This document shows, in pieces, positions 22,839 to 54,236 of a stretch of DNA of 64,000 bases. Both the position numbers and the translations under genes were made by a program. The notes under the pieces were generated by a model. The model searched no databases. It was not told the DNA's origin and saw nothing but the letters and a program-made list of their open reading frames with translations. The stretch is from a virus, in the IMG/VR virus record IMGVR_UViG_3300025997_000005; one strand, 5' to 3'. How positions within the stretch are numbered: the stretch's first letter is position 1; every line of letters begins with the position of its first letter.

Positions 22839-22839
22839 A

Positions 22840-25459: not shown

Positions 25460-25718
25460 TAAGATAAATACAAAAATGAAAAGTAACACAGGACAATTGA
25501 TTAGATGTAGAAAATATAATATTAACAACAGCAATAGTAAAAACATCTAACAGTTATTGCTTATACAATTTGTTAGCCCAGTACGCTTTATTAGTAGAAT
25601 TTTAAATTTGGAATATTTATATATAAAATAAAGGACAAATGGAATTGAGAAAATTTATAAAAACAATAATCAAAGAATACTTAATGTCTGGTGCGGATTT
25701 TAAACAAAAAACTTTGAT

Positions 25719-27464
25719 ATGAAAAACGAACGTAGTAATAATATTTTTTTGAGCGAGGGCATTAACGTACTGTCTTTATTTGATGGCATTAGTTGTGGAC
25801 AAGTAGCTTTAGAACGTGCAGGAATTAAAGTAAATAAATACTTTGCTTCCGAGATTGACAAACACGCAATTAAGGTAACTCAAAGCAACCACCCAAATAC
25901 AAAACAGATTGGTGATGTAACCAAAGTAAAAGTAAAATTACTTTACTTATCGGAGGTTTATTCGTATATTTGCAATTATGATAACAATTTACAAAGCAAA
26001 ATTTCCGAATGGGAAATATTATATTGGCTTGACAAGAAATACGCTATGTCAACGAAAGTCGGAACACAAAAGTCGAATGAAGGACAAGAAGTACAAGAAT
26101 TTACCACTTTACAATGCATTGAGGAAATACGGTTTTCAAACAATAGTATGGGAAGTATTACTAAAGGTAGGAACAATACAGGAAGCAGAAAGAATGGAGA
26201 TGAAAATGATTGTAGAAAACCCTTTAAACTACAATGTAGCAGCTGGGGGTATGACTATGAGTTTCACACCCGAAATTTGCAAGAAAATATTAGAGAGTCA
26301 AAAGGGAGTGCCAAAGACAGATATTCAGAAAAAGAGAATATCACAAACATTGAAGAAAAGATTTCAAGACAAAAAGGAGAGGGATTTAATTTCAAAGAAA
26401 ACCAAAGAAGCGATGCGGACTCCAGAAGTGAGAAAGAAATACTTGGAGAGTCGGATGAAGATAGATTACGAAGAGAGGTCAAGAAAAAAGAAAGAGACCG
26501 AAAAGAAGAAGAGATTAATTCTATTGAAGAAATTATCAAAGAATTACAAAGATGGGATGAAGTTGACAAAATTGAAAAGAATTACTGGGATTTCTTACGA
26601 CTTCATAAGGAGGAACAAGTCACGGTGGTTGAGTATGAGGGAGGATTAAACGTATTTAAAGGAAGAATAGACCTTTTATGTGGTGGTTCTCCTTGCCAAG
26701 GATTTAGTTTTAGTGGTAAGCAATTGAACTTTGAAGACCCACGAAGTAAACTATTCTTTGAATTTGTTCGGTTGCTTAATGAAGTGAAGCCTAAATACTG
26801 GCTACTTGAAAATGTGGTAATGAAGCAAGAATACCAAGACGTAATAAGCCAACATTTGGGTGTTGAGCCAGTAAAATTGAATAGTTCTTTAACTTCTGCT
26901 CAAAACCGTGTGAGATTGTATTGGGCAAACTTCGATATTACTGAACCAACCGACAAAGGAATAGGACTTGAAGATATTTTGGAAGATACTGAAATGATTG
27001 GCCCAAGTGCGATACGTGGCAGAAGATTGAATAAAGCCACTATTTTAGGGCGTAGATTAGATGAACTAGGTAAACGACAAGATTATGACAAAACCATACC
27101 AATTACGCAATGCCTTGAAGTAAGAGCAACTAATCGAGATAAAAGTAATTGCCTTACTACCGTAGCAAAAGACACGGTTTTAACGACAATGGAAATAGGG
27201 CGACACCCTGACGCTTTTAATAGGAAATTACCATTTAGGAACTACAATAAAATTGAAAGGTGTAGGTTGATGAATTTGCCTGACAATTATTGTGATGAGA
27301 TAAGTGATAACCAAACAGTAAAAGCGACTGGTAATGGTTGGGAAGTTGGAATGATTACTCACATATTTAACCAAATGGCTGCCCAAGCAGACAAAGAGCG
27401 TGGGGAAGAAAAAAATATTATTACGGCTTATATGCACGAACCATCATTGAAAACGGGAACGTAG
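25719..27464 (+). CDS. DNA (cytosine-5)-methyltransferase with ~240-aa insertion encoded in an alternate frame of a nested endonuclease gene
   Basis: LSLFDG, SEID, GGSPCQ, ENV, QNRVRLYW, GNGW; insert between GDVTKVK and IDLLCGG. Confidence 0.85.
   Translation: MKNERSNNIFLSEGINVLSLFDGISCGQVALERAGIKVNKYFASEIDKHAIKVTQSNHPNTKQIGDVTKVKVKLLYLSEVYSYICNYDNNLQSKISEWEILYWLDKKYAMSTKVGTQKSNEGQEVQEFTTLQCIEEIRFSNNSMGSITKGRNNTGSRKNGDENDCRKPFKLQCSSWGYDYEFHTRNLQENIRESKGSAKDRYSEKENITNIEEKISRQKGEGFNFKENQRSDADSRSEKEILGESDEDRLRREVKKKERDRKEEEINSIEEIIKELQRWDEVDKIEKNYWDFLRLHKEEQVTVVEYEGGLNVFKGRIDLLCGGSPCQGFSFSGKQLNFEDPRSKLFFEFVRLLNEVKPKYWLLENVVMKQEYQDVISQHLGVEPVKLNSSLTSAQNRVRLYWANFDITEPTDKGIGLEDILEDTEMIGPSAIRGRRLNKATILGRRLDELGKRQDYDKTIPITQCLEVRATNRDKSNCLTTVAKDTVLTTMEIGRHPDAFNRKLPFRNYNKIERCRLMNLPDNYCDEISDNQTVKATGNGWEVGMITHIFNQMAAQADKERGEEKNIITAYMHEPSLKTGT
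25978..26649 (+). CDS. GIY-YIG homing endonuclease nested in the MTase gene (+1 frame)
   Basis: TIY...YYIGLT, R..EH, ALRKYG, E, YN; basic NUMOD3-like tail; TATATTTG at 25965-25972. Confidence 0.88.
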   Translation: MITIYKAKFPNGKYYIGLTRNTLCQRKSEHKSRMKDKKYKNLPLYNALRKYGFQTIVWEVLLKVGTIQEAERMEMKMIVENPLNYNVAAGGMTMSFTPEICKKILESQKGVPKTDIQKKRISQTLKKRFQDKKERDLISKKTKEAMRTPEVRKKYLESRMKIDYEERSRKKKETEKKKRLILLKKLSKNYKDGMKLTKLKRITGISYDFIRRNKSRWLSMRED

Positions 27465-27550
27465 CACTTGCAGCTAACGGTTGTGTGTATGAAACGTAGC
27501 CATAGTAAACAGTTGATATAAACCACAGACCTTGATTGGGTATGTTTTAT

Positions 27551-27763
27551 AAAGGAGCGTAAAACCCATTCATCGCTTTAGCGTGAATGGGATGTAAGCG
27601 ACAAAAAGATTTGACTTTTAAAAATAAAGTTGTATATTTTTATTAACTCTGGTTGTGGTATGCAGTCGGAGTATAAACAAAAACGGGATGAGGCGTTACC
27701 ATTAGGTGAGTCTGTGACCCCCGAAGCCCAACCCATCGCCTCTGGCGTGGGTGGGTAGTTCAC
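27551..27763 (+). mobile_element. Non-autonomous IS200/IS605 derivative inserted in an attC arm
   Basis: Near-identical to 8174-8386; follows TTAT. Confidence 0.85.
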
Positions 27764-27890
27764 GTTACATTTAAACCAAATCAAATTAAATCGGTTGATA
27801 ATGATGGAACTTGGGATATTGGGGATAATAACATTTTTTCTTAAATTTGTGTGGTGGGAGAAAAAATAAAACAATGAAAGATTTGAAACA

Positions 27891-28451
27891 ATGAAAGATT
27901 TGAAACAATTTATAAAAACAACGATGCGAGAATTTTTGAATGAGAATAGAGTTTATCATTTATCCGATAATCCAAATTTAAAAATTGATAAAAACTATAA
28001 CCCGAAACAAGGACAATTGGGTAAAGGTTTTTATGTAACAAAAAATATTGATGATTGGGGTATAGAATCTATTGGAAAACGTGATTATATATATGTAATA
28101 GAAAATTTTGAGGAATTAAGAATAGCCAAACCAAATGAACAACCAAATAGGGAACAACTCGTTGATTTTGGAATTAAAAATGGGTTTTATGAAATGGATA
28201 AGGTAATTAAACCTAATGGTGATGTTGTTAAGAATTTAGATGGGAATGATTTAATTAGACCTATTGAAACTGATAAATATAAAAAATATGCAACATATAT
28301 AGACCCGATGACTGGTAGTAGTATTGATTTTTTAGAACAAGAATATTTAAAATCAAAAGGCTTTGATGGCAAAGAACCATATTATAGCAGAGATGGTCAT
28401 CAAATAATTATATGGAATTATGATAAAATCAAATTAAAAAGAATTAAATAA
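27891..28451 (+). CDS. Cassette gene: leader (FIKTTMREFLNE) + ADP-ribosyltransferase-like domain
   Basis: VYH, GKGFYVT, GFDG motifs. Confidence 0.55.
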   Translation: MKDLKQFIKTTMREFLNENRVYHLSDNPNLKIDKNYNPKQGQLGKGFYVTKNIDDWGIESIGKRDYIYVIENFEELRIAKPNEQPNREQLVDFGIKNGFYEMDKVIKPNGDVVKNLDGNDLIRPIETDKYKKYATYIDPMTGSSIDFLEQEYLKSKGFDGKEPYYSRDGHQIIIWNYDKIKLKRIK

Positions 28452-28673
28452 AGTGGGTGGGATTTTCTTTTAAATTTTTCAACCGAAATGTTGGTTAGAA
28501 CGATGAACTGAACACTTACACATAACGTTTTGCGTGTATATGCCAGGTGGCGATTAGAAGCACTTACCTTTCAATTACACAGAATGTTTGATAGAAGAAC
28601 GAATGTTGAATAAACAACAGAACTCCCACTTGCATATATACCTTGTTATAACACGTTTTTAAAAATTAAAATT

Positions 28674-29000
28674 ATGAAAAGAAATATAACCGAAACCCCT
28701 GAAAAGTGGGTAATATTAAAACTATCAAACAATTATTATAAAGTTTTTGGAACTTGGAGTGGTGATTATTTAAATGGTGACAGGTGGAAGTTAAATTCTG
28801 GAATTGAAAAAGTTGAACAAGATGCTGATTTCTATTATTTTATCGGTTTTAGCGGTAGTTGCTACAAATGTCATAAAAAGAGTTATGGAACTGCAACTTC
28901 TTATGGATTAGGTATGTTGAATAAAATAATAGAAGATAGTAATAGTCAGATTGAATTAGTTGAAGATGAGGATATTGATGATTGGTCAAATGGGTGCTAA
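28674..29000 (+). CDS. Cassette gene: phage hypothetical protein
   Basis: PEKWVIL, YYKVFGTWSG.YL.GD.WKLNSGI, GFSGSCYKC. Confidence 0.75.
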   Translation: MKRNITETPEKWVILKLSNNYYKVFGTWSGDYLNGDRWKLNSGIEKVEQDADFYYFIGFSGSCYKCHKKSYGTATSYGLGMLNKIIEDSNSQIELVEDEDIDDWSNGC

Positions 29001-29830
29001 CGTTTAGTGTATGGCAAGTAAGCCACGCACGAAACTATCAAATTACTAATAACTTAATAGAATGAACGAAACTTTAAATAACGCAGAAACCCACCATGTT
29101 TTATACACGGTGTTAGGCACAGTTTTATATCAAATTTGTGCAAAAGGAAAATATGCTTCATTTGATGGAAAAACCAAATATTATAGTAAAAACGCTTACA
29201 TTAACAAACCATCACAAGATGAAATAGATTCTTTTATTGATAAGTGCTGTAACAGTAAACATCCTAAGAATTTATATGATTTGGAAAAGGAAACAGTTGA
29301 AATATTTATTGTTGAATTGAAACTTGCTCGTTAAATAGTGTATAACGGGTTGCATATAACCTAAGTAGCGGACTTTAAAACCAAATGTTGAATATAAAAA
29401 TAAACTTGATATGAAAGAAAAATGGACAATTAACATACCTAACCCGCTATTTTGGTTATATGCTGTTATGTATCGTTTTCATAAGTGTAAATTTGAAAAT
29501 AAATTGTATGATATACCTATGGAAAACAATACAAATTTTCTAGTAACACAATGCAGATGTGGAAAAACTAATATGGTAAGAGCACACAGGGAAAGTGAAA
29601 TGTATAAGGATTGGATTAAATGATACATACCAAGTAGAACAAAATGGGCACTGCGTGTATCAAGGAACTGAAAGTGATTGTAATGAATGGCTTAAATGTC
29701 AGTTAGGGTATTGTGGCTCTCGTGCCGAATTATTAAGCACAAAACTTAATTTGGAACAATAAAGAAAAACAAAAAGAATTTTAGGGTGGAAATTTTAATT
29801 TGGAATATTTATATATATAAAGAAAATACT

Positions 29831-30418
29831 ATGAGTGAGATGAAAAACCATATTAAAACTACCTTAAAAGAATTTGTTGCTAAAATTATTAAAGAAGAAC
29901 TTGAAAATGACACATATGCTTCATTTAAAGGTGTAAAGCCATATAAAGAAAGATTATTAGATTTTAAAAATTCAATAAAAACATTCCACGATTTAGATGA
30001 TGATAAAATATTGAAATGTATTGATTTTTTTGGGTGGGAAGGATTTGAAGATGAAGAAGAAGCTTTTAAAGAATTAAAAGAAAGGGTGGAATTTTATAAA
30101 AAATTACCAAATCCTTCAATAATGTATAGAGCAGTTGGTGTTAAAAATAAAAAACTGATAGACATTGAAAATATTGGGGAACACGTTACACCATATAAAT
30201 GGGCTATTGATGGAGATATGCTTTTAATGATTGGTAGTGAGAACTGGGATAATGATGTAGTGCCTTATATAATGGAACTTAGTGTTCCTTTATCTGAAAT
30301 AGATATTATTCAAACAATAATTCAGAATTTATCATTTCCAAATGAACATGAAATAAATTTGAAAAATAAAGGAAAAGGTGCTAAATTTGTAAAAGCATAT
30401 AAATTAAAAGGTTTTTAA
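29831..30418 (+). CDS. Cassette gene: leader (IKTTLKEF...ELE) + possible ART-like domain
   Basis: ATATTTATA at 29805; MYRAV, IGEHVT, EHEI. Confidence 0.5.
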   Translation: MSEMKNHIKTTLKEFVAKIIKEELENDTYASFKGVKPYKERLLDFKNSIKTFHDLDDDKILKCIDFFGWEGFEDEEEAFKELKERVEFYKKLPNPSIMYRAVGVKNKKLIDIENIGEHVTPYKWAIDGDMLLMIGSENWDNDVVPYIMELSVPLSEIDIIQTIIQNLSFPNEHEINLKNKGKGAKFVKAYKLKGF

Positions 30419-30615
30419 AAGTGCGTTGGGAAAATTCTTTTTGTTTTTCATCACAAATGTTAAATAGAAGGACTGAACTAAGGCATGGAGCATAACGGCT
30501 GCAAATATATTGTCGTTTTAATGCAATATATTTGTTGTTAGCACCAGTACGGTAATTTAAGATAAAACTTGATTAAATGGATAATAATTAGTATATTTGT
30601 AAAAAAAATAAATTT

Positions 30616-30987
30616 ATGGAAAAACAATGGAACTGGTTTGAAAAAACCAATAAAAAAGATGCAATTAAAAATGAGTTACAACCATTAATTACTGAAATGA
30701 TTAGTGATGATGTACAGTGTTTATTTATTAGCCCACAAGTTGGCGTAATTTTAGAAGAGTGTGACAATGTGTTTATAATACCTAATGATGAAATAATCCA
30801 TCATAACGAAAATTTAACCGTAGAACATTTTTTTAATTTTTATAAAAATGATGAGCCGATAAGGGTTTACATTGATAGAAACAAAGAAGATGTTGAAATT
30901 ATTGATTTTCGTGGACATAAAGAAATTGTTAATACTTTAAGAATTGGTAGTGATGGATTTTTTACAAAATATAGCAATAAACTTTAA
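30616..30987 (+). CDS. Cassette gene, hypothetical
   Basis: Own TATATTTG promoter inside body 30537-31018. Confidence 0.65.
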   Translation: MEKQWNWFEKTNKKDAIKNELQPLITEMISDDVQCLFISPQVGVILEECDNVFIIPNDEIIHHNENLTVEHFFNFYKNDEPIRVYIDRNKEDVEIIDFRGHKEIVNTLRIGSDGFFTKYSNKL

Positions 30988-31324
30988 ATCGAAGCACTTT
31001 CGTAGTATTGGTGCTAACGGTTGGGTGTATGAGAAGGTTTGCTTGTATAAACTTTCAAATTACCACACTGTTAATAGCAAACTTTCTTATACACCTTGTT
31101 ATAACCAGTACGGTAATTTAAGATAAAACTTGATTAATTGGAAAATAATTAGTATATTTGTAAAATAATGAATTATGGAGAATAGAAGAATTATTAAAGT
31201 AGAAGTTCCAAAAGAAATTTGGGATGCACATATGTCTATTTTTAATTTTAGAAAAGATATATTAGGTGCTTGGATGGAAAGCGTTAGAAAAGTAATTAAC
31301 GAAATGACATTAACAAATTAATTT

Positions 31325-31654
31325 ATGGATAATAGTTTATTAATATTTGGTAATGAAAAACAAAATTACACTTCAGATATATTTTATATTGAAAATGATA
31401 ATGTTTATTTTACCGAAGTAAATGTTTTTAAATTAAACGGAAACATCTACGCAATAGATGATACTTGTAAAGTAGATAGAAATGATATAGTTGATGGAAT
31501 TAACAATGGTGATGATGTTATAATTAAGATAGATAGTTCTTTTTTAGTTGCAGTTATAATACCAAGGAGTTTAGAAACCAAACTAAAAAACGCAATTGAT
31601 AATGAAGATTATGAATTAGCAAAAATAATAAATGATAAAATTAAAAACAAGTAA
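31325..31654 (+). CDS. Cassette gene with C-terminal UVR (UvrB/C) motif
   Basis: LKNAIDNEDYELAKIINDKI. Confidence 0.7.
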   Translation: MDNSLLIFGNEKQNYTSDIFYIENDNVYFTEVNVFKLNGNIYAIDDTCKVDRNDIVDGINNGDDVIIKIDSSFLVAVIIPRSLETKLKNAIDNEDYELAKIINDKIKNK

Positions 31655-33036
31655 AATGGAAAATTTAACAATTAAAATCACTATTAGTGATGATGAAAAA
31701 GAAATCAAAGCTACAAACATCAATGTGGGTGATTATAAAAAAACTAAAGACTTACATGGTATCTCTTTGGTTGATGAAATGGTTAATGAATTATTATCTA
31801 CAATCGAAGCGGATAAGTAGTATTGGTTATAACGTATCGGTTGTATGGTTAGTGCGATTTAATAATAATAAACTTTAATGAAATGACAGAAGCAGAGTAA
31901 ATATTCGAAAAACACATTGGGTTAAATACTGAATTAGGTTATTTGCCTTTTGAAAGACGAACCTTTTAATTATTAACCGCCCTTTTTCTTTTATTTTTTT
32001 TGAGCGTGGGCAAATGCTTGTAAAAGCAATTATTTACAAAATAATTAAAATATTTTGCTTTTTTCTTTGGTAGTTACAAAATAAGTTATATATTTGTAGT
32101 GTAATAATTAATTAATAACAATTTAAAACACAAAATTATGAAAACTTTACATTACATCTTAAACACAAAAACAGACGAAAGCTTTGATACAATAGAAATG
32201 AAATTTTATCCTAATAATTGGGAACCTGAAATGGAAGAGGATAAAGATTATTTACAAAGCTTAATTGACGAAGACCCAGAAAAATTTAAAAACTGTATAA
32301 TCGAAACAAGAACTTTTGAATAATGGCTTACTGGTTTTTAAATAAGCAAACAAAAGAGCCGAGAATATTCTCGACTCTTTGCCTGTTATGTGTGAAGAAA
32401 TTACTGAACTTGATAAGCAAAGTTTAGAGTACCATTTTAGCAGACTGAAAAAAGAAGAATTTGAAAACGATAATTACAGAATTGTTAAGCGTAATCTTGA
32501 GAGGGGTGGAAAAAAATAAAAGAAAAAGATTAGAAGCACTAAACGTTGATACAGCACGGAATTAGGCATAAACTATATACCGTGTTGTGCAATCGTTTTA
32601 ATGTTGCACAACGTTTTTCGGCTTGGTGTCTGTTATTTTGCCTTGCAGACATTTCAAGTTTTAGATAAATTTAATAGGTAAAATAATAGCACCAAACCGC
32701 TGTTAGTGGCTGGTGCGGTAAATTAAACGAAAATGAAATTTCATAAAACAAAAGATGGTAAAAAAATTAAGTTGACTGATTTAGAAACGAATCACTTGAA
32801 AAATATCATTAAATGGATTGAACGGAAAGCAAAGGAAGGATTAACGGTAGGAATGGGCGGTGGCTCGTGTGCTGAAGATATGTGGTATGATGAGGAAACT
32901 TATTATGGCAAAGAAGCTAAAAGCCAACTTAATTTTTCAGACTACAAAGCTGAATTGAAGCGGAGAGTTAGCACTTGCCACTAACGTAGATAGGCTATGA
33001 ATAGTAAGGCGATTTTAAAACACAAAACTTTGAATT

Positions 33037-33225
33037 ATGAAATGGATTAAATTAAAAGACCGAAAGCCATCTTGCGAGATTGATGGTGAAAAGATGTTGG
33101 TTTACAGAATAATGAATGAAAGCCAAGCGAGTATGGCAATAAGCATCCTTGATACGAAGATGATTAAATACAGTAATGAGGATGAAACTTGGTGGATGGC
33201 TTTACCTGATGAACCACGAACCTAA
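33037..33225 (+). CDS. DUF551-like small protein encoded inside an attC loop
   Basis: WIKLKDRKP...WWMALPDEP; lies between hairpin arms at 32982 and 33247. Confidence 0.65.
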   Translation: MKWIKLKDRKPSCEIDGEKMLVYRIMNESQASMAISILDTKMIKYSNEDETWWMALPDEPRT

Positions 33226-34494
33226 GCCTTATTATTTATAGCCTTTGTTGTAAAATCGTTTTAATGTTTTACAACGATTTGCAGCTAACCGAAGTTGGCG
33301 ATTACGAAGCACAAAACTTGAATTTAAAAAAAATGTATAATCGAAGCATAAACGTTGATATAACCACTGAACCGCCAATTTTGGTTAGGTGCTGTTATAA
33401 GCCGTTTTTCTTCACAAATTTTAAATAAAATGTATAATAAAATACCAGATAACAAAGTAAAAGAAGCTATAAAGGATTATAGTATTACCAAATTGAAATT
33501 ATTTATAGATGCAATGGATATAGCTAATGAAAAAGCAGAAAGAGGTTCAGATGTTCGTTTCCAAACTTATGATGCTAAACAAGTAGCTATCGACTTGCTT
33601 TATGAAAAGACGTGTAGTTTCTTAAATGGCTTATAACGGAAAAATGTAAAAAATCGTTGCGATATGAATGAAGAACTATTTGGAAAACTGCACGAACAAG
33701 AAGAATATGGATTGTTTGGGAAGGAACACGAACGCCAGCAATGTTTTTTACATAGTGTTAGCACCAGTGCCTACACGAAATTAAATATTAAAACTTAAAT
33801 AAAAATACAATGGCAAAAACAGTAAAATTACCCGATAACATTTCCGAAGAAGAATTAGTAAGGCTTTCTAAAATGAAAGAACTTTATATGACATACACCA
33901 ATGAAGGATTAAAAGATGATGAGTATGAACAAATGAGGCAATTAGCAGAAGAATTATCTTACTGTTTTGCTGTCGATACGAAGGTCTGATGGCATTGGTG
34001 CTAACGGTTTGCAGATAGGCGATGTGGCGGATTTTGGAACGCTGAACTATCTGTAAGCACTTAACTTGATTTGAAACACTAAACTTAATATTAACCGAGA
34101 AACCCGCCATAGTGCTGTTATGTGCTGGCCTTCTCAAAAACTCAAATAGAATGATAAACAAAATAATTGAAATCGCATTTAGTGGCTTTTGGCCATTTGT
34201 AGGAATGATGATATTACTAAACGGAGCGGCCTATTTTGCTGTAAACGGTTTGGTAAAAATGTGGAGCAGGTTTATGAGAATGTTAATGGTTAGGAAACAT
34301 GGTTGGCCGCCTATTCATTTAGATGCTGATGGCGATTGGAAACCTGAGCCAAAAGCTGACTATGACGCTAATTAGGCTTGCACATAACGGTTGCAAATAT
34401 AAAACGTTGTAACAAAAATTATAATTAGTGTAACAAAATTTGAAATTAAACGTATAATATAATTGAAAAACGACAGCAATGTTTTATATTTGTT

Positions 34495-34611
34495 GTTATA
34501 TTTCAGTTTTGGGGATGAGTTTCAGTAAAACTCCTTGAACTATTTGCCATCTGAGAAGGATGCGGTCTGAATTAACAGATACACAATGGTTTCCCCAAAA
34601 TTGAATATAAC
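34495..34611 (+). ncRNA. ORF-less cassette, putative small structured RNA
   Basis: TTTTGGGGA/TCCCCAAAA closing stem with three internal hairpins. Confidence 0.4.
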
Positions 34612-35378
34612 GTTACGCAAGTATGAAACGTGCCAACACAAACTTTGATTGAAACAATGGACATTAAATTAACATAAATATTAACTTAGATGCAGGATAG
34701 GCATGTTTTATACTTGCTGTTAGGCATCTGTAAAAATTACGGATATGAAAGACCAAGACAAACAAATGATGAAATTTAGAGCAAAAGAAGAATTGAAGAT
34801 AAAACTTCTCAAAGTTATATTAGACTATAAAAGTGAAGAAGAACCTAAATGTGAATTAACAAGCACTGATATTATTAATGTTTTATCTTCAATGATAGTA
34901 AGACAAACTGAGTAATTTTTATTGTGCCTAACGTTTTGCGTGTATATGTCAGGGGGGCGATTAGAAGCTCTAACTTTTCAATTACGCAGAAAGTTTGACA
35001 GAAGAACTAAACTTGAATAAACCACAGAACCGCCACTTGCATATACACGCTGTTAGTGGCTGGGCTTTTCACAAAAAAAATTAAAATGACAGACGAAATT
35101 AAAAGACTGAAAAAAGAACTGAAAGACTGGAAATCTCAAGAAGTTAAAGAACGATTTGAAAGAGTTAATTCTCAACTTCATCTTGTTACTATCAATGAAT
35201 TGCAACACAAAATTAAAAGATTGAAACGTGGTGAAGATATTTAGGTCGTTCTTTAGCCTTGCCACTAACGAAAAGTTTATGGCGTGTTGCGTGAACAGAG
35301 AATTAACTTAACAAATAGATAATGAAACATAGTGAAGATATTAAAATGGAAATTGGGGGTAAATTTATAAGTAAAAAT

Positions 35379-43430: not shown

Positions 43431-43976
43431 AAGCACAAAACTTTTATACAGCACGGAATTAGGCATAAACTATATACCGTGTTGTAAAATCGTTTTAATG
43501 TTTTACAACGTTAAAGTATAACCGCTAGTTGGCGATTTAAAAGCGAAAATTATGGATAAAAAACAAAGTAAAATAAAAAGCACAGACGATGGATTAAGCA
43601 CTAAACCAGCCAATTACGGTTATACAGTGTTAGCCACCGTTTTTGAAAAGCACATACTCCATTTTGACATTGGGGATAGTGTTTATTTAAAAACAGACCC
43701 TGAACAATGTGAGAGACTTGTAACTGGTATAAATATTAGACAAAATGGAATTAGTTACGCACTATCACATTTGACAAACGAAAGCTATCACTATGACTTT
43801 GAAATAAGTAAAGAACGTGATATTGTAAAAGCCACTTCATCTTAAATGGTGGCTAACGGACAGGTATATGAAAAGTAGCCTAACCACAGACTTTGATATT
43901 ATGTACTGACCTTTCATAGGCTATTTTTTATATACCATGTTAGCCATATGGTGCGGTTTAATTAACGAAATTTAAA

Positions 43977-44489
43977 ATGAAAACATTAGTAATACATCCG
44001 AAAGATTCAACAACCGATTTCTTGTGTGAAATATACAAGGATAAAGATTGGACTGTTATCAATACAAACACATCAAAAAAAGTGTTGAAAGAACAAATAA
44101 AAGAACACGATAGAATTGTGATGTTAGGACACGGAACAGAAAAAGGATTACTTGGATTTAACAAATTTGTAATTGATTCAACGTGGGTTTATTTGTTACG
44201 TGATAAAAATTGTGTTTGTATTTGGTGTAATGCTGATGAATTTGTTATGAAATATGGATTAAAAGGATTTTATACTGGTATGATAATTTCAGAATATGAA
44301 GAAGCTATTATATGTTGTGTCCCTACAAATTCACAATGGATAGCTGAATCAAATACTGATTTTGCATTAGCAATTAAAAACTCAATTAATGATGAAAATA
44401 TGTTAGAAAAAGCAAAAATTCTATACGAAGGTAATTCTTCGGTTGTTGAATTTAATCGCAACAATCTTTATTACGAAGCACTATCGTAG
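43977..44489 (+). CDS. Cassette gene, hypothetical (MLGHG, CIWCNA)
   Basis: 170-aa ORF filling body 43939-44503. Confidence 0.75.
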   Translation: MKTLVIHPKDSTTDFLCEIYKDKDWTVINTNTSKKVLKEQIKEHDRIVMLGHGTEKGLLGFNKFVIDSTWVYLLRDKNCVCIWCNADEFVMKYGLKGFYTGMIISEYEEAIICCVPTNSQWIAESNTDFALAIKNSINDENMLEKAKILYEGNSSVVEFNRNNLYYEALS

Positions 44490-45409
44490 CACTTGTGGCT
44501 AACGGTAAGTATAAGAATAGTAGGCGATTTAAAACGCTAAACTTCGCAACCAGAAAGAGTTAATTAAATGAATATAAACAACCTACTTGCACGGACACGC
44601 CTATTGTTTTTATACATTGTTATGCGTTCGTTTTGTGCGGTGGTATAAAACTTTAAAAATGACACGAACAAAGAAACTTTACGGATTCAGATTAGGAGAA
44701 AGCATTCCAAAATGGACTGACAGATTTGGAAGAAAAGGAGGTAAAATAATTCAGTTAATTAGATTAAAATACTGTAATAAATTTCAGATACAGATAAGCA
44801 ACGGGGATATCTTGACAACTGAATTTATGATACAGGATGATTTTCATAAGCGTGGGTTGGCAAATGAGGCATAACGGATTAGTATAAACTTAGTTAAAAA
44901 AACGGAAAATTATGTACACAAGTTTTTATATAGCAGAAAGCAGACTTAACGAACTAAAATCTTTTATTAGGGTCGGTTTTTTATTTAGTCCCCTGCGAAG
45001 AAGGTCAAGCTTTAATTTCTGAAGAATTACCTACTATGAAAGATTGGTGTTTGAATATGTATGCAACTAACTTTAGTAGACGAGTGCAACCACCTAAGAA
45101 AATTAGACATTATAAAAATGCCATTAAGGATTATAGATGGGAGTACCATAGAAAAGTAGTAGCAGCAGACCACATAAGAGACTTACCAAACATTAAGGCG
45201 TTTTTAAATTGCGACTAACGTTTTGCGTGTAAGGAAATTTGCGTGCAAGTACACTGCAATTTTCAGATTAATAAATAAAAATAATTAAAAAACCAGAACA
45301 AATGGAATTAAACATAATTAGCAATTTTTACAAATCGATGTTTGCAGTAGTGCCTTTATAGAATTAAAATAAAACTTCTAGGTGAAGTTATAAAACCCAA
45401 ATAAATAAA

Positions 45410-45613
45410 ATGAATAAATTAAAACAAGCACCAATGGCTAAGTATAGTAACCAAGTGCAAACAAGTAGGGATTACTCAAAGTTTAAAACTTTGATTGGTA
45501 ACAGAAAGCCAAATGAATTGCACATTAAAAGGCTAATCAGTTCATTTAAGGAACGCTATTTATTCAGTCCAATACTTGTAAATGAAAAAATGCAAATCAA
45601 TGTTGTGCTTTAG
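45410..45613 (+). pseudogene. Truncated ParB-like N-terminal fragment
   Basis: DYSKFK.LIGNR...PILVNEKMQI, cut before the expected IDGQHR by a junction at ~45600. Confidence 0.6.
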
Positions 45614-46136
45614 TTATTTTGCGGGTTATGTAAAAATATGTTTACTTTAATTTGGTAGTTAGTAAATTTATGTTTACATTTACAGAGTAAAACAAATAGA
45701 GATGGAAACTGTAACAATAACAAAAAGAATTATAAACGGAACAGAGGTTTATAACAAAAGGTTTGATGATTATGAAAAAGGTTTTTATGGCGAAAAAATT
45801 TCTAAAAAAGAATATGAAGAAAGTAAATCTTCTAATACGCCAAAATATACAGATACAAATAAAACATTAAACATTATAGAAAGGATAACTTATGAAAACT
45901 AGAAAGAAAAAAGTTTTTACAAACTGGTGCAGAAGTTGTCATTTTGATTGGATGATTGCTGTAAGAGAAGTAAAAGGTAAAAGGTGGATGAATGTATTAT
46001 CTCACCTTGAAAACAAAGGAAATTTTAATGTTGATGATTTTAATAAAATTGAAGATTCTTGGAAAAAGATATTAGAAACAATCAATTTAATGACAGAAGA
46101 AGAAATAAGTTATTTACACAATCAAAAATACAATGT

Positions 46137-46316
46137 ATGAATTGGCACGAAAGATTTAAAGCAATGAAATCAGGGTTAGGATTAACTAACTCCGATATTG
46201 CTGGCATAACTGGTAATAGTGATGATTCTGTAAAGTCGATTACTCAACCAAATAAAGACATACCACGTTGGCTAAAACTCGCTATTGTAGTTTATGAACG
46301 GATGGTAGCAAAATAA
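46137..46316 (+). CDS. Small HTH protein closing a three-gene cassette
   Basis: LGLTNSDIAGITGNSDDSVKS...IPRW. Confidence 0.7.
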   Translation: MNWHERFKAMKSGLGLTNSDIAGITGNSDDSVKSITQPNKDIPRWLKLAIVVYERMVAK

Positions 46317-49300
46317 TTAAGCACAACGGTCTTGTATATGAAAAGTAGCGTGTAAATAAGCACATACTTTTCCGACTAAAATAACGTTATTAAATTAGTA
46401 AAGCAAATTGAGTTTAGCACTTATTTAGCTATTTTTTATATACGGTGTTGGCAATAGTTATTTTATTTTCGTATTATTAACAATAATTTAAGTCAAAAAT
46501 ATTTACTTTTGCACTCAATTTCACTTATATTAGTATTATGGAATTAAATTTTTTAGAAATGATAGACACAGATAAAAGGACAGACTTTTTGTTTCCAAAG
46601 AGAAGTTTTTGGACAGGTTTTTCTAATGTATTAAGCATTTTCGGAGAACCAAATAAATTTAACACTTCAAAATCAGGAGAAGAAGCAGACTACAAAGCTT
46701 TAAAATCCGATTGGGAAATGGTTGGACAAGATATTCGGAATGTAATGTCTGATGAAATTAAATTGTCAGACTGTGAGTAAACGAAAGGAGGATGATAATC
46801 ATTAGTGTTTTCATCAACTTTTTTATATCTAAATGTATTATTAAAATAATTTCTATTTTTATAAATCATCATTTTTTTTTCAAATGTGTGCCAACGTTTT
46901 GCGTGTAAGGAAATTTGCGTGCAAGTACACAGCAAGTTTCAGATTAATAACTAAAAATAATTAAAAAATAAAAATAAGTGATAAAATATTTGGAAATTTG
47001 ATTTAAATGTTTTATATTTGTTGTTATAAAATCGTAAAATTATGAACTTAGAAACTTGGATTGTAGTTGAAAATGGTGATATGTTTGAAGGAACACGAGA
47101 ACAGTTTATGGATTGTTTCTTTTCAAATGCAACAGATGAAGAAATTAAAGATTGGTGTTTTGATAATGGTTGGAAACTTAAAATAGGCGAAGAAACAATC
47201 TTTGCTTAATAATTTTATGTTTTATAACGGACAGGTATATGGTTAGTGCACCTACCACAAACTATTAAACTAAGCACTGACCTTCATTGGTACATTAACT
47301 ATATACAATGTTGTGTGCCGTTAATTTTAGAATTATGAGAACTGGATATTTTGCAAACACAAAAACAACAACAAAAACACATTTGGTAGATAGCAATAAT
47401 AAACCAATATGTAAAAGTAACATCAGAAATAAAACTTTTCAATGGTGTGCAAACGGTGTAATGTACTCTTACATTGAATGCAATACTTGCAAAACAAAAG
47501 CAAAACAACTATTGGAGCAAGAGGTTAAAGACCGTTTGCGTTAATGGCACACAACGATGAGGCTAAGAAACGTAGCCTTGTAATCACGTTTCAAAATAGG
47601 TAGGAACTTTATTGGCTATGTTTTTTAGCCTGTGTTACCACCAGTTAATTTAATAATTATGTTTAAAATTTACAAAGGATATTTGAAATGGAAAATGATT
47701 TCCTTAATCAAGGATAAAATAATACACTACACAGTTGAAAAAAACAATTATTTACAACGACAAAATGAATGGGAAAAGAAAGAATATAAACCAAATAGAT
47801 GTTCAGATGAAGCAAGGTTTGAAAAAGAAAAAGCAGAACAAATAAGATGGTCTAATGAACAATATAAAGTAAACCATTTTAAAGGTGAGGCTGTTTTAGA
47901 AATACTCCGAATGGTTGAGAACCTTTAATTGGTGGTAACGGGTTGTGTATGAAACGTGGTGGAATAGAAACCACATAACTATCAAATTACTAATAACTTA
48001 ATAGAATGAACGAAACTTTAAATAACGCAGAAACCCAGCATGTTTTATATTGCGTGTTGTGCGTAGTGCTTTAATAATCAAAACGATGGAACAAATTTAT
48101 TATTGGATTGGATTAGTAGTTTTTTGGCTTTCTGCAATAATTGGAAGCGTAGTAGCAGTAGGATATTTAAGTAAACTTCTACTTGATAAATTAGGTAGGC
48201 AGATAAAAACTACTTGGATAATTGTTGAGTTTGCTTATTATCGAAAAGAGTTTAAAGAGTGGGTTAAAGACAAAAAACGGCATCCGAAGTGCAAATCTTA
48301 GCATTACGCACAACGTTTTGCGTATATACAAGGTACGCCTTAACGAAATTTCAATTATAAACAAATGCTTGTAGGCGTATCTTGTATATACGCTGTTAGC
48401 AGATAGTAAAAATTACGGATTATGAAAGAAAAACATATTTGTTCTGCTACTGTAAATGACAAAACAAGTAGGCAGATTATGAGTAAAATGATAAACGGAT
48501 TTTCTGATGAAATATGTGGGTTTAATGCTAAATACTTTGAAAATAATAATTGGTATTGTGGCAAACACGCACCAAGTAAAATAGCAGAACGAGAACGAAT
48601 AAGTTATGAAAAGTGGAAAGCTAAAATTGAAGCACGAAAGCAGTAATTTTTATTTCTGCTAACGGTACGCAAGTATAAAACGTGCCAACACAAACTTTGA
48701 TTGGAACAATGAATTTGAAATTAACATAAATATTAACTTAGATGCACGACAGGCATGTTTTATACTTGCTGTTAGGCATCTGTAAAAATTACGTATATGG
48801 AACAAAAAGTAAAACACGATATTTATAAGATGCTGATACCAATAATTGGTACATGGTGGGTAATAAAGCGAATATTGCCTGATTTGGGTGAAATAACATG
48901 GTGGGATATATCTAAATATTCAATTCCATTAACATTCGGATTAGTGATGTATCAGGCGATATGTTGGATAGGGTACAAAGTGTTTTACATGATGTACTTT
49001 TTTGATTACACATTTGAACAAGTATTTACGCAATGGTAGTAATTTTTATTGTGCCTAACGGACGAGTGTATGGCAAGTGCCTACACAGAACTTAATTAAT
49101 AATACAAAATATTGAAATTATGAAACAAATTATCAAAAGAATACAAAAGGCATTTGCTATACACATTGTTAGCAAACGTTTTAAGATTGAATTTTTAATG
49201 GATGGAAATTTAGAACCATTACACACAACTTACTTGGAAGGTAAGAATAAAAATGACGTAGAAAAAAGGTTTGATAGACTTGATTTAGAAAGCAGACGAG

Positions 49301-49749
49301 ATATTGTTAGTGTAAATGTTTGCTAACGTTTTGCAAATAAAAACAGTAAAAGATATGAAACGACAAATTTTAAAAATAGCAGATGAACTTGCCAATGATG
49401 TAATAACTACGGAACAGGCAAAAAACCTTTTATTGGTTTTATTTGATGTTAGCCACAGTACTTCTTACTTAGATGATAAGTACGAGGTTAAATGGCTAAT
49501 AAATAATACATACCAAGTAGAACAAAATGGGCACTGCGTGTATCAAGGAACTGAAAGTGATTGTAATGAATGGCTTAAATGTCAGTTAGGGTATTGTGGC
49601 TAACGTGCCGAGTATATGAAATGTAGCGTGTAAACAGCCGAAAAGCAACGATTAAGAGCTGAATTAAATAAATAGAATATTAACCAAGTGGGAAGCGAAA
49701 ACAGCTATATTTTATATACTGTGTTACCCACTTTTAAAAATAGCGGTAA

Positions 49750-50052
49750 ATGAAAGCTAAACTAGAAAAATATAACGGAATTGATTACTTGACTTTTAAA
49801 GTAAATGAAGAAATTGGATTAACACAACTTCCTGTAATTACAAAAGGAACACGAGAAGGCACAAATGCTTGGACTTGGAACGGTGATTTGGAAAAACCAA
49901 CACTAAGACCAAGCGTAAGAACAGGCTACTACAATGGTAAAGAAACGACGGAAATACATTACTGGCTTAATGATGGAATTGCTGATTGCTTGGGCGATTG
50001 CAAAGATGGAAATGCAGGTAAAAAACTTGCCTTAATGGAACTCGAACAGTAG
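49750..50052 (+). CDS. DUF6527-like protein (cassette)
   Basis: WTWNGDLEKPTLRPSV, H.WLNDG. Confidence 0.7.
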   Translation: MKAKLEKYNGIDYLTFKVNEEIGLTQLPVITKGTREGTNAWTWNGDLEKPTLRPSVRTGYYNGKETTEIHYWLNDGIADCLGDCKDGNAGKKLALMELEQ

Positions 50053-50701
50053 CCATTTTTTATTGTGGCTAACGGTTGCGTGTATATTCAGGTTTGCTTG
50101 TAGAGACCTTGAATTATGCACAAATGCTGATGCAAACTTGAATATACACGTTGTTATGCTCTCGTTGCGGTAAATTTACTCAAACCCTTCAATCGAAGCA
50201 CTAAAAACATTTTTATTCTTTTGTGTGATGGGGAAAATAATTATATTGATTATCAACATATTAGAAAATATATTGAAAATATTTGCAAATTTATTAGGTA
50301 ATTTGAAACAAAAGTATTACCTTTGACGTATAAATTAATAAACAACTTAAAATTTAAAGGTATGACAAATTCAGAATTAAACAAATTATCAGTTGCTGAA
50401 CTTAGGGAGTTAAGAAATAGAGTAACTGAAATGCTTCAATTGAAAATGCAAATTGAAGGTAAATTAAACAAGGATGTTTTAAAATTTGGTATGACCGTTA
50501 AATATATTGGTGGTCGTGATAAAATTAAAAACGAAACTTTTGTAATCGAAAGAATTAACAAAGTGAATGCTGTTTGTAAAAGTAATGTAGATGGAAGACG
50601 TTGGAATATTAATATTGCAAACATTCAACCATGTGAAGATTTAATAGAAACAATGGGAGATGATAATTATGAACCAGAAAGTGGTTTCCAAAAATAAAAT
50701 T

Positions 50702-50887
50702 ATGGCAAAGCGAATATCATTAAAATTAACTGACAAAAATGATTGGTTAGTTGAAGCAATAAATAAGGAAATTGATGAAACGAATAGACCATCATTTAAT
50801 AATATGGTTGAAACCATTCTTGTTTCTTATTTTAAAGCGAAGGAAGAAAAGAATAAAAATGTTACCACAAATGCTAATTCGGAGTAG
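50702..50887 (+). CDS. Small ribbon-helix-helix protein closing a cassette
   Basis: KRISLKL...SFNNMVETIL. Confidence 0.6.
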   Translation: MAKRISLKLTDKNDWLVEAINKEIDETNRPSFNNMVETILVSYFKAKEEKNKNVTTNANSE

Positions 50888-50942
50888 TTCCTTAGCAATG
50901 GAGCATAACGGACAATAATAAACAATCGTAAAATTATGACTT

Positions 50943-51209
50943 ATGAAAAAATTTAAAGGAAGCAAACACTCACATGCTAAATGGGTGGCAGAAGAATTAT
51001 TTAATGAGATGCAAAACACAGTTGATGAAGCAGCAGAATTGTTTGCTTCTGATATTTATAGCATAGCCAAGTGTTGCTCTTATAAAGCTATTGAACTAAA
51101 TAAACTAGCAGTTCTTGACGGATGGGGTTATAAAGAGGTTTGTAATCAAACACAAGAGCAACACGACTTTTGGGAACTCGTGAAATCATATTTAGATGAC
51201 ATTAAATAA
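50943..51209 (+). CDS. Hypothetical protein encoded inside an attC loop
   Basis: Between arms at 50906 and 51230; followed by a 29-bp empty body. Confidence 0.7.
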   Translation: MKKFKGSKHSHAKWVAEELFNEMQNTVDEAAELFASDIYSIAKCCSYKAIELNKLAVLDGWGYKEVCNQTQEQHDFWELVKSYLDDIK

Positions 51210-51864
51210 TTTTATGTTGTTTATTTATTGTTGTGGTGTCGTTTTAATGCAGCACAACGTTAAGTATATGGCAAGTTGGGGATTAAAATGTGCTACCCTT
51301 TTAATTTGCAGAAAAGTAAATTAAAAGCACAAATGTAGTTTATTGGAATTGCGCCCCAATTTGCTATATACATTGTTAGGCGCAGTTATTTTTAAAATTA
51401 TGACAACAAAAAAATTAGTGAACTTAATGATGAAATCTTCTGACCACAATCCATATACTGGTAAGCTGTCAGAAAGTGCTAATGTATTGGCTGCAATAGA
51501 ACTTGCAAAAAAGTTTAAGGAATTTGCAGACGAAGTATATACAGACGAGGCAATGGGTATTGAAAGCAGCCAATGGGTTGAAGTGATAAACAAACTTGAA
51601 GAGAAGCGACTTAATTGCGCCTAACGGTTGGGTGTATATGTAGTAGTGGATAGAAAGAACCGAGCTTTGATTAACCACTGAACTTCATAGAAACAACTAA
51701 CGTTGATTTACAGATGAAACCACCATTACATATACACCTTGTTATGACCAGTACGGTTTATTTACCACAAAACTCGATTAGAACCACTGAACAAAACTTT
51801 TTAAAAATGTGCGGTGGGAAATTTAATTATGAATATTTATATATAAGATAAAGTATTTACTTAT

Positions 51865-52341
51865 ATGGAAAACGACAAATTAAGAAGTTTTATAAAAACG
51901 ACAATCAGAGAATTTCTAAATGAGAATGTTAAAGGTAAAACAATATACCATTTTACTGATGGTTTGGATTCATTATATTCAATTTTGAAAGGTGACTCAT
52001 TAGAATCTGGTTCATTTAATGGTATTTATGGTAAAGGATATGATAATATTTCCTTTACTTGGAATCCAAAATTATGGGATATTGAGTATGCTGGTGATAG
52101 CAATGGTAGATATAATGCAAGAATATCATTTGACTATGGTAGAATTAGTCAGAAATGGAATTTTAAACCATTTAATTACGGTATAGATGAGGAAATGGAA
52201 GAAATAGTTGAAACTGATGAAATGCACGGAATTGTTGCATATATTACAGAAATTCTTATTAGTGATGAAGAATCTATGTTAGAGATTAATAATTTGAAAC
52301 GTTCTTATCCGAATTTAAATATTAGAACAATTAAAAGGTAG
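51865..52341 (+). CDS. Cassette gene: leader (FIKTTIREFLNE) + ART-like domain
   Basis: ATATTTATA at 51833; IYHFT, L.SIL, ISFT, EMEE. Confidence 0.55.
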   Translation: MENDKLRSFIKTTIREFLNENVKGKTIYHFTDGLDSLYSILKGDSLESGSFNGIYGKGYDNISFTWNPKLWDIEYAGDSNGRYNARISFDYGRISQKWNFKPFNYGIDEEMEEIVETDEMHGIVAYITEILISDEESMLEINNLKRSYPNLNIRTIKR

Positions 52342-52466
52342 GAAATTTTTAAAAAGTTTTGAAACAAAAACCCAATTAGAACGTATAATATAGTATTGGT
52401 CATAACGTATCGCAGATATGGAGTCGATTTTTTACGGATTTAAAACACACTAAAATAATTATTATT

Positions 52467-52712
52467 ATGAGAAAAGAAGAAATACTTAGGAAGCATTTTA
52501 AAGTTGAATTTGGACACGAGGGACATGGTAAATTTATGCAGTATATTTTAGCAGCAATGGATGAGTATGCAAAACAGGAAGTAAAAAAATGCTCTATACC
52601 TGCTGTTGTAGGGAGAAGCGAACAGTTAAAATGCGAACACAAAGGGCGCAGAACAGCAACTGAACTCGTGGAATATTGCGAAGATTGCAAAAAGATACTT
52701 TTCCATCCGTAG
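52467..52712 (+). CDS. Loop-to-body fusion ORF with the same zinc-finger module as 40522
   Basis: Near-identical 3' half, unrelated 5' half. Confidence 0.75.
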   Translation: MRKEEILRKHFKVEFGHEGHGKFMQYILAAMDEYAKQEVKKCSIPAVVGRSEQLKCEHKGRRTATELVEYCEDCKKILFHP

Positions 52713-53726
52713 CATTTTAATTGCCTACAACGTTGAGTATATAATTTCGTTGTTGCTTAACAGCACGACACTAACAAAATAAGATAAAGATGAAGAAAGC
52801 AAAAAGAATCCAAAAACGCAGAACCCACAACAATGAATTATATACATTGTTAACTACTGGCGTTTTACAAGAACTTAACTTTAAGGACATTGGACAGAGT
52901 GAATTTGAGTTATTTGAAAACATGAGTTATTGGATAAAGAATAGTATTTGCCTATTCTATAACACCCCAATAAATAAAGATTGGCAAGATAGCTTTTATA
53001 TAGGATATGCTGAAATGAGGCAAGGCAAATACGTTGCTGTTACTTTTAGATGGATTGATAGTGTAGAAGAACTAACTCAAATTTACGAGAGTATAACACG
53101 AAAGAAAATAGATGAGCCGATTTAACGGTTGTAGTTAACGGCTGGCGGTATGAAAAGTTGCGTTTTTAACCGCACGAACTTCTACTAACCGATGAACGTT
53201 AAATAAATGTAGAAACTTAAATATTAACCGCTGACCCCGCAATTTTTTATGACCGCTTGTTATAGTGCGTTTTCTGCGGGTAGGCATTAAAACTAATAAA
53301 ATGGCAAATTTATATGTAAAAGAAATTGGATTGCTTAATATCAAAGAAAGCAAAGAGGAAGTTTTAATTGAGCTAAAAAATGAAAATCCTGAGTGGGCTG
53401 AATATACAGTTATAGAAAGTTTTTATGGTGAAATGAGCGGAAAAACTCACACAAATGAAAAACTATTAACTATACGAACAAGAAATATAATTGCAGTTGA
53501 ATAGTGCGGTAGGAAAATGCACTATAACGGTTGGGTGTATGAGAAGGTTTGCTTGTAGAAACTTTCAAATTTACCACTACCGTTGATAGCAAACTTTCTT
53601 ATACACCTTGTTATGCTCTCGTGCCGACTTATTAAGCACAGAACTTGATTTGAAATACGAAAGAAAAACAAAAAGAATTTTAGGTGGATTTTTTTAAATT
53701 TGAATATTTATATATAAAAGAAAACA

Positions 53727-54236
53727 ATGAATGATTTGAAAAAGTTTATAGCAACCACAATAAGAGAATATTTGAACGAAACTTCAAAATCTATTGTAAC
53801 TTATAATAATGATACTGTAATTAAGAAATTTAATGACAAATATGAATTAGAAAATACTATTAAATATTTTCCAAACCATCCTAATTTATTTCCTATAATT
53901 TATAATATTAATGGAGACGAAATAGAAATTGAAAGATTAGATACTAAAAAAGCAATAAAAGAATTTAATATATTAAATAATTGGTTTAAGAAAAATCTTA
54001 AAATATCTTTTGGTTCATATTTAATGAGAGATTATACTTTCAAACATATCTATCCAGATAGACCATATCCGAAATTACCATCAGATTTTCCAAAAGAATA
54101 TAAACAAATACTTGATAAGTATCAAAAACTAATTAATGATATAATGAAAATTGTTGGTAAATATTTCTTACTTGATGTTCATTCATTAAATTTTGGATAT
54201 GATAAAAATGGAAATTTAAAAATGTTTGATATTTAA
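53727..54236 (+). CDS. Cassette gene: leader (FIATTIREYLNE) + protein kinase-like domain
   Basis: ATATTTATA at 53704; VIKK, DVHSLNFG catalytic-loop-like, MFDI. Confidence 0.65.
   Translation: MNDLKKFIATTIREYLNETSKSIVTYNNDTVIKKFNDKYELENTIKYFPNHPNLFPIIYNINGDEIEIERLDTKKAIKEFNILNNWFKKNLKISFGSYLMRDYTFKHIYPDRPYPKLPSDFPKEYKQILDKYQKLINDIMKIVGKYFLLDVHSLNFGYDKNGNLKMFDI

Follow-up and report, generated by a model that had tools for sequence, protein, structure and literature searches.

The 64,000-nucleotide (nt) stretch of the virus record IMGVR_UViG_3300025997_000005, called the window from here on, carries a set of small genes that share a promoter box and a short N-terminal leader peptide, behind which the encoded proteins are unrelated. 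We consider it probable that this leader is a capsid targeting sequence (CTS) of the kind borne by the internal proteins (IPs) of phage T4, that it is joined to the late promoter of the lineage, and that the pair also serves as a recombination handle. From sequence and structure models we infer the targeting, cleavage, packaging, and injection of these proteins and the targets of the enzymes among them. The mechanism is known from T-even phages, and what is seen here would be a distant and much larger variant of it. New are this leader of 18 residues, its fixed coupling to an extended late promoter, the at least 81 clusters of cargo, its presence on hundreds of uncultured contigs, and the types of enzyme carried. 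This leader was not found described in the literature searched. Coordinates without a genome label refer to the window.

The leader has 18 to 20 residues with the consensus M-x-x-L-(K/R)-x-F-I-(K/A)-T-T-I-R-E-(F/Y)-L-N-E. Five open reading frames (ORFs), those starting at 25639, 27891, 29831, 51865, and 53727, begin in the way a preliminary description of this DNA had stated, and its statement that the bodies after the leader are unrelated is confirmed, since the five products have no mutual alignment and BLAST of the bodies links none of them (Table 1). The canonical form FI(K/A)TTIRE(F/Y)LNE is found in 51865 and 53727. The leader of 29831 has lost L-N-E and has I-K-E six residues further on, and because its body is homologous to three bodies that bear the canonical leader, sequence comparison makes it a true member of the set. 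The stop codon of the 25639 remnant overlaps the ATG of a C5 cytosine methyltransferase gene at 25719 (PF00145), and the body of that cassette has been replaced. At 27891 the leader and a GGTGGGA part of the upstream sequence are kept, and a deletion has removed the promoter box that would stand between GGTGGGA and the start. The orthologous metagenome locus L004 keeps the box, and relative to it the 27891 locus has lost about 25 nt including the box. The first copy of the tandem duplication in the start region of 27891 creates an upstream ORF of six codons whose end falls on the true ATG.

Table 1. Cassette features of the window, with the basis or a remark for each
Feature	Position	Strand	Basis or remark
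Late-promoter box of the stub cassette	25613-25625	+	Exact motif, extended context as in the other cassettes
Leader-ORF remnant, 27 amino acids, MELRKFIKTIIKEYL...	25639-25722	+	Sequence read
17-nt tandem duplication of the start region (ATGAAAGATTTGAAACA twice)	27874-27907	+	Sequence read, against L004
Leader (27891-27944) and 168-amino-acid body, MKDLKQFIKTTMREFLNE...	27891-28451	+	ART-PolyVal/AcrIF11-like
Conserved upstream module	29716-29825	+	D5 repeat, box at 29805-29817
Diverged leader MSEMKNHIKTTLKEFVAKIIKEELE (29831-29905) and body	29831-30418	+	Body homology to canonical-leader bodies
Conserved upstream module	51744-51853	+	D5 repeat, box at 51833-51845
Leader (51865-51924) and ART-fold body, MENDKLRSFIKTTIREFLNE...	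51865-52341	+	Predicted structure
Conserved upstream module	53615-53724	+	D5 repeat, box at 53704-53716
Leader (53727-53780) and minimal kinase-like body, MNDLKKFIATTIREYLNE...	53727-54236	+	Predicted structure

A degenerate DNA pattern encoding F-I-x-T-T-[IM]-R-E-[FY]-L-N-E matches 94 stretches in IMG/VR, at least 116 in metagenomes, and 17 in contigs of metagenome-assembled genomes (MAGs), and the same search gave no match in isolate genomes. Among the 282 pooled matches listed, 272 lie no more than 12 codons after an ATG, which makes 96% of them N-terminal. These listed matches comprise at least 206 distinct complete leader proteins whose bodies, with a median length of 154 amino acids, fall into at least 81 clusters unrelated by BLAST, and a T[AT]TTTATA box lies within 90 nt upstream in 169 of 199 leader ORFs. 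The leader and the body are exchanged independently: some homologues of the 27891 body have the same leader, some another N-terminus, and some none, and the protein P0009 has an identical leader on a body unrelated to that of 27891.

That the four genes might be diverged paralogues of a single family, with an N-terminal helix as its best-conserved element, would be in keeping with all of them being small, AT-rich, and clustered, and with two bodies opening on a similar YH(L/F)(S/T)D strand. It does not account for the at least 81 unrelated body clusters, for a leader that lies outside the folded domain, or for homologues of the same body without a leader. It was rejected because the predicted models give the bodies different folds, ART (ADP-ribosyltransferase) in one case and kinase-like in another, and we give it hardly any credence.

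A different explanation places the conserved unit at the level of DNA or RNA only, as a mobile regulatory cassette of promoter, 5′ untranslated region, and translation start in which the peptide is a passenger. Some 110 to 260 nt upstream are indeed conserved together with the leader, the genes are flanked by long hairpin repeats, and in one cassette the truncation falls precisely within the leader. The codons argue otherwise, because the conserved residues are written with 3 to 6 synonymous codons each (four for Thr, three for Arg, six for Leu), which indicates selection on the peptide and not on the DNA alone, and F-[LI]-x-E still closes the otherwise quite different leaders of homologous bodies. 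We regard such a cassette as improbable in place of a targeting peptide, although it is compatible with one alongside.

The end of the peptide bears on what it does. In T4, L/I-x-E is the motif after which the prohead protease gp21 cuts, residues 1-10 of IPIII are enough for a protein to be taken into the head, with positions 4 and 7 of the tag important for targeting and 8 and 10 for processing, and Alt, a packaged T4 ART, loses a 7-residue propeptide (PMC9026906). The T4 tags as read from AF158101, with a slash at the cut, are MKTYQEFIAE/A for both IPII and IPIII and MKTFKEFTSTTTPVSTITE/A for IPI. The leaders of 40 homologues of the 51865 body vary from 13 to 26 residues, from the full FIKTTIREFLNE down to short forms such as MKTFKQFINE, MKIIKNYEEFLNE, and MINNWNQFLNE, and the part that stays constant is F-[LI]-x-E, placed five to eight residues before the body. 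In this family, [LI]-x-E occurs in 37 of 38 pre-body peptides against 11.2 ± 2.7 after shuffling (maximum 20 in 2000 shuffles), and in the kinase-like family it occurs in 42 of 52 against 21.2 ± 3.3. The short leader MKTFKQFINE, from homologue P0019, agrees with T4 IPIII at 6 of 10 positions and with IPI (MKTFKEF) at 6 of 7, a stretch too short for homology statistics. The long leader and IPI have MK.(L/F)K(Q/E)F..TT in common, again too short to prove homology. The capsid-targeting character that the preliminary description had seen in the leader is thus supported by a peptide that is N-terminal, modular, and terminated by L-N-E, and by a gp21-type protease in both complete leader-carrying genomes.

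The leader could instead be a recognition tag for some other partner, such as a modifying enzyme (for instance of the radical-SAM type), a chaperone, or a host structure late in infection. A common binding partner would also yield a shared N-terminal helix on unrelated proteins, and the leader is predicted as a free helix, lying outside the fold in both available models (51865 and 53727) with a predicted local distance difference test score (pLDDT) below 55, and below 50 in the 53727 model. Such a tag leaves unexplained the constant L/I-x-E in otherwise different leaders, the late promoter held in common with head genes, and the likeness to the T4 CTS, so that we think it unlikely. A radical-SAM partner as the general explanation was rejected, since the complete genome G003, with its four leader ORFs, has no such domain; G001, the other complete genome, has one weak radical-SAM match, 10-25 kb from its leader ORFs.

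These two genomes, both from IMG/VR and with terminal repeats, are of 310.5 kb (G001) and 287.9 kb (G003), and G001 has three leader ORFs. The T4 gp21-type prohead protease (PF03420, Peptidase S77) scores 82 bits in G001 and 86 bits in G003, and is found as well in the incomplete leader-carrying contigs G005 (the overall range being 74-86 bits) and G006, where it reaches the cut-off. The order of head genes in G001 is T4-like, with terminase, portal, protease (17775-18467), acidic scaffold (18548-19765), and a gp23-type major capsid protein (MCP). The MCPs of G001, G003, and G005 are gp23 homologues with L/I-x-E (LINE/A, ILTE/A, and LVE/S) just before the conserved core. G001 and the window have promoter-leader modules and other intergenic repeats in common at 72-92% nucleotide identity. 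Both TerL of G001 (10453-13458, 1001 amino acids) and the portal (13516-16290, 924 amino acids), in L106, contain large intein-like or HNH-like insertions. Adjoining the head module, at 24063-25142 on the minus strand (14064-15143 of L106), is a 359-amino-acid protein that has a ParB-like DGHHR motif and resembles an ART in its C-terminal part, and which, judged by eye, looks like a small polyvalent-type protein.

The phage itself is without close relatives among 50,697 phage records, where a single 67-nt match to the window was obtained and no homologue of 51865 was found. The window is itself borne on contigs of 85-162 kb. The window has 29-36% G+C, many small plus-strand ORFs, nine tRNA genes, and genes for two sigma-70 paralogues, Tpt1, a macrodomain protein, PRPP synthetase, TnpB, and a tyrosine recombinase. 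It also has TTG...TATATTTG promoters (repeat family D11), which we take to be of the Bacteroidota type. A Bacteroidota host is likely, because the nearest cultured MCP relatives are from Flavobacterium phages (vB_FspM_immuto) and Rhodothermus phage RM378, and 6 of the 17 MAG matches fall in Bacteroidota bins.

The promoter half of the pair can be followed from the window into G001. The preliminary description had located the 13-mer ATATTTATATATA at 25613, 29805, 51833, and 53704, and exact copies are indeed at those positions, all on the plus strand, with 14-23 nt from each copy to the downstream ATG. When one mismatch is allowed, the count is six where 1.5 are expected; the 10-nt core TTTATATATA has eight matches in the window against 1.5 expected, a count reached by 0 of 100 shuffles. 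The box is therefore present as described, but the conserved upstream unit is longer than those 13 nt, comprising about 110 nt (repeat family D5), and the module at 53615-53724 is 72-74% similar to modules in G001. From 67 leader instances on other contigs the upstream consensus is GGGTGGAAATTTAAAATTTGAATATTTATATATAAA. The promoter has the core TATTTATA in an extended form, AATATTTATATATAA, and GGTGG about 20 nt upstream.

In G001, all 8-mers within 45 nt upstream of genes were counted against their reverse complements, and TATTTAT[AT] is the most enriched strand-specific word: ATATTTAT stands before 38 genes compared to 4 for its reverse complement, and TATTTATA before 34 compared to 12. Within 50 nt behind TATTTAT[AT] lie the genes for TerL (preceded by the exact string TATTTATATATAAT), prohead protease, scaffold, tail tube, an adaptor-like protein, and the tail sheath (phrog_23, E = 2.8e-62), as well as several very large ORFs and all three leader ORFs. 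The host-type TATATTTG box belongs to another group, of 16 genes. Because it precedes structural genes in this related complete genome, the TATTTAT(A/T) box is supported by promoter association as the late promoter of the lineage, which is what the preliminary description had put forward as putative. The T4 late box is TATAAATA, so the box of this lineage differs.

Several further observations concern these promoters and leaders. Directly 5′ of the late box in two cassettes, at 25601-25612 and 53692-53703, is a host-type −7 box (TAAATTTG), and such cassettes might be transcribed both early and late. The two sigma-70-family paralogues of the window (4609-5484 and 20730-21584) are full-length, with regions 1.2, 2, 3, and 4, and have a homologue in G001; one of them may read the GGTGG...TATTTATATATA promoter. 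A second leader family, M-x-I-I-I-T-E-N-Q-L-K-x-I-I-x-E, also ends in L/I-x-E and also stands behind TATTTAT[AT] boxes. Many further late genes of G001 have it (25087-25782 on the minus strand, 263609, 267625, 272936, 284448, and others), as does the ORF at 22091-22471 of the window (MEKNKIKKILREISVGLSE...), with a late box 40 nt upstream.

The preliminary description had read ART-like or kinase-like motifs in the bodies behind the leader. By prediction that reading stands for 51865 (ART fold), 53727 (kinase-like), and 27891 (ART-PolyVal/AcrIF11-like), and not for 29831, which has no assigned fold. Direct family searches are of little help: Pfam and PHROGs on the four window proteins give no significant family, with a PHROG hint of "kinase" at E = 0.06 for 53727, and the family profiles of 27891, 51865, and 29831 against PDB sequences give nothing usable. 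A Pfam search of 136 leader proteins encoded on other contigs assigns no domain to most of them and identifies ART-PolyVal in 11, GNAT in about 10, PARP in 2, and DUF3990 in 2.

Structure prediction with Foldseek had been proposed as a check on the bodies, and the AlphaFold2 model of 51865 (pLDDT 83.4) matches DarT (E = 7.4e-5, probability 1.0, TM score 0.57), also Tpt1, and then pierisin and scabin. H29, S63-F64-T65, E110, and E112 are invariant in the family of 40 homologues and are candidates for the catalytic triad positions of ARTs (H/R, Y/S, E/D). In a fused homologue, P0023, a paralogous N-terminal domain matches Tox-ART-HYD1 (PF15633, E = 3.7e-6), with no match elsewhere in the family. 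An hhalign comparison of the family with the ART-PolyVal cluster is negative (probability 0.5%), so the ART assignment rests on the fold search instead. As modeled, the 51865 body has an ART fold of the nucleic-acid-acting branch, DarT/Tpt1-like and HYD1-like.

For 53727, the AlphaFold2 model (pLDDT 87.4) has kinase-fold proteins as all 50 of its 50 best VIA matches, with Z from 5.5 to 7.6 and including Ark1, Bud32, RIO, and NleH1. The top match is Ark1, Z = 7.6, with a root-mean-square deviation of 2.4 Å over 106 residues; since Z is below 8, the weight is on the uniform match list and on the motifs. In the family, D150, K165, and D168 are invariant and the beta3 lysine K33 nearly so, in the pattern D-x-H-x-x-N-F-G-Y-D ... 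L-K-M-x-D, in keeping with a bilobal kinase fold that has D-x-x-x-x-N in its catalytic loop and a metal-binding Asp. Foldseek gives weak rows (best E = 1.9e-3, TM score about 0.3), all of them kinase-fold enzymes, and the family profile finds NleH1 and NleH2 at E = 0.02. By its model, 53727 is a minimal protein-kinase-like fold.

The 27891 body aligns by hhalign with the leader-borne ART-PolyVal cluster (E = 5.9e-5, probability 65%), and its Atlas language-model features reach 0.95 to AcrIF11/ART-PolyVal clusters with 192 shared. Pfam has no match on the window protein itself, and its homologue P0007 matches PF18760 at E = 0.01, which is below the cut-off. These comparisons point to an ART of the ART-PolyVal/AcrIF11 group. 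The 29831 body has a conserved YR ... ExE pattern, for which Atlas yields just a lead, and neither Pfam nor PDB sequences give a match; YR and ExE in this family are suggestive of an ART.

If the leader is a CTS, the sequence of events would be as follows. The leader genes would be transcribed late, along with the head genes, and the leader would bring each protein into the scaffolding core of the prohead, where the gp21-type prohead protease would cut it off after L-N-E. The mature small enzyme would stay with the packaged DNA, enter the next host cell with it, and modify host or defense targets before any phage gene is expressed. The cargoes of the window would be two predicted ART-fold proteins, one minimal kinase-like protein, and one without an assigned fold. 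Since related phages keep both promoter and leader at the DNA level, the two would also be a homology patch for the exchange, loss, and truncation of cargo genes.

Several points weigh against this picture. The phages are uncultured and known from sequence alone; the protease and head genes were read in related genomes, outside the window's own phage, and G001 is distant from it at the protein level, with 13 of 88 window ORFs matching at 27-55% identity. Five incomplete contigs with leader ORFs (43-74% complete) gave no match to PF03420. The resemblance to the T4 CTS, over no more than 7-10 residues, may have arisen by convergence, and [LI]-x-E is a short motif. The T4 MCP cleavage site GSFLTE/A aligns with GSFE-T, ten residues past the upstream L/I-x-E assumed to be the site here. 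Within the window, 27891 is without a late box and 25639 is a stub. Finally, 53727 and its nearest relatives are without glycines at the place where most family members have a G-x-G-x-x-H-x-V-Y loop; without a glycine-rich ATP-binding loop, 53727 may be inactive, or else an atypical kinase.

A bolder version is that FIxTTIRExLNE is a true homologue of the T4 CTS, forms with its late promoter the portable head of a cassette, and marks the whole injected proteome (more than 80 families of small enzymes, with DarT/Tpt1-like and AcrIF11-like ARTs, minimal kinases, and GNATs among them) of deep-branching, mostly uncultured T4-like large or jumbo phages, probably of Bacteroidota. That version we hold tentatively, at somewhat short of even chances.

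In T4 and here alike, a short N-terminal tag ending in L/I-x-E stands on unrelated small proteins, a gp21-type protease is in the lineage, the genes have late expression signals, and the cargo loci are variable; the short-leader homologues even have residues of MKT(F/Y)x(E/Q)FI..E. The differences are that the leader here is 18-20 residues long with its own consensus FIxTTIRExLNE, that at least 81 body clusters on hundreds of uncultured contigs compare with three proteins in T4, that the hosts are probably Bacteroidota, and that the late box is TATTTATA. The T4 IPs are a restriction inhibitor (IPI) and small basic proteins (IPII and IPIII), whereas those here are enzymes (ART, kinase-like, GNAT) as known from sequence and models.

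T4 Alt is an ART that is produced late, travels in the head, loses an N-terminal piece to gp21, and is injected (PMC9026906). The ARTs here would share these features. Alt, however, is an R-S-E ART of about 75 kDa with a 7-residue propeptide and C-terminal processing, whereas the ARTs here have 140-170 residues, belong by prediction to the DarT/Tpt1/HYD1 and ART-PolyVal/AcrIF11 branches, and bear an IP-type leader.

Polyvalent proteins and MuF- or portal-fused phage effectors are predicted to travel in virions and to act at entry (Iyer et al. 2017, PMC5512222; Iyer et al. 2022, PMC9503650), and phage ARTs are often head-packaged in the published view (PMC9503650), a paper with no mention of "N-terminal leader" or "HYD1." The domain repertoire is the same here (ART-PolyVal, PARP, DUF3990, GNAT), but those effectors are addressed through fusion to a structural domain or as parts of a giant multidomain chain, in contrast to a short, putatively cleavable leader on single-domain proteins. 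In phiKZ-like giant phages (phiKZ, 201phi2-1, SPN3US), many head proteins have propeptides that a diverged gp21 homologue removes by cutting after Glu (PMC9026906). Their ejection proteins resemble ours in having head-protein propeptides and a gp21-related protease, and differ in the motif (S/A-x-E), in propeptides that are long and without a common short tag, and in belonging to another lineage. As for the cassettes as DNA, the PeSL cassettes of the hyperplastic regions of T4-type phages (Arbiol et al. 2010) are reportedly small accessory genes flanked by a promoter and hairpin repeats that favor shuffling, and are said to have early promoters and no coding leader. By comparison, the repeat here is a late promoter plus a coding tag.

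The window has other elements around the cassettes. Long imperfect hairpins with stems of about 28 bp recur between genes (at 53527-53612, and in families D6, D9, and D13 at about 27466, 31006, 35831, and 50061), and the one before the 53704 promoter has a folding z of −3.4. The intergenic hairpins may serve the cassette array as terminators or as sites of recombination. The late promoter of the stub cassette is now just upstream of the C5-methyltransferase gene, whose frame (25719-27464, PF00145, E = 2.6e-31) stays open across about 720 nt that encode, in another frame, a GIY-YIG homing endonuclease (25978-26649, phrog_314, E = 1.9e-16). Copies of an element of about 120-220 nt are at 27546-27774, 8169-8386, 2336-2430, 22835-22887, and 60098-60150, the first of them just upstream of the promoter-less 27891. 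Sequence flanking the TnpB gene (22840-24072, minus strand) and a TnpB homologue in G001 (106722-106851) matches these copies, which probably represent ends of the IS200/IS605 type or guide-RNA regions dispersed through this part of the genome.

The CTS has been called a possible general route by which T4-like phages load varied proteins (PMC9026906). Injected proteins act before phage gene expression, which makes them prime candidates for host take-over and anti-defense functions, and they are hard to recognize from sequence. The leader with its promoter is a simple search key that already yields at least 206 proteins in at least 81 families, most without a known domain, and that retrieves, by their predicted types, nucleic-acid-type ARTs, AcrIF11-like ARTs, GNATs, and minimal kinases. 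If our reading is true, the T4 capsid-targeting mechanism extends far beyond the T-even phages, and the leaders would be ready-made tags for loading foreign proteins into the capsids of non-coli phages. And if the leader is a homologue of the T4 CTS that marks the injected proteome, then the injected effectors of these phages could be catalogued from sequence alone, and any captured gene could join them.

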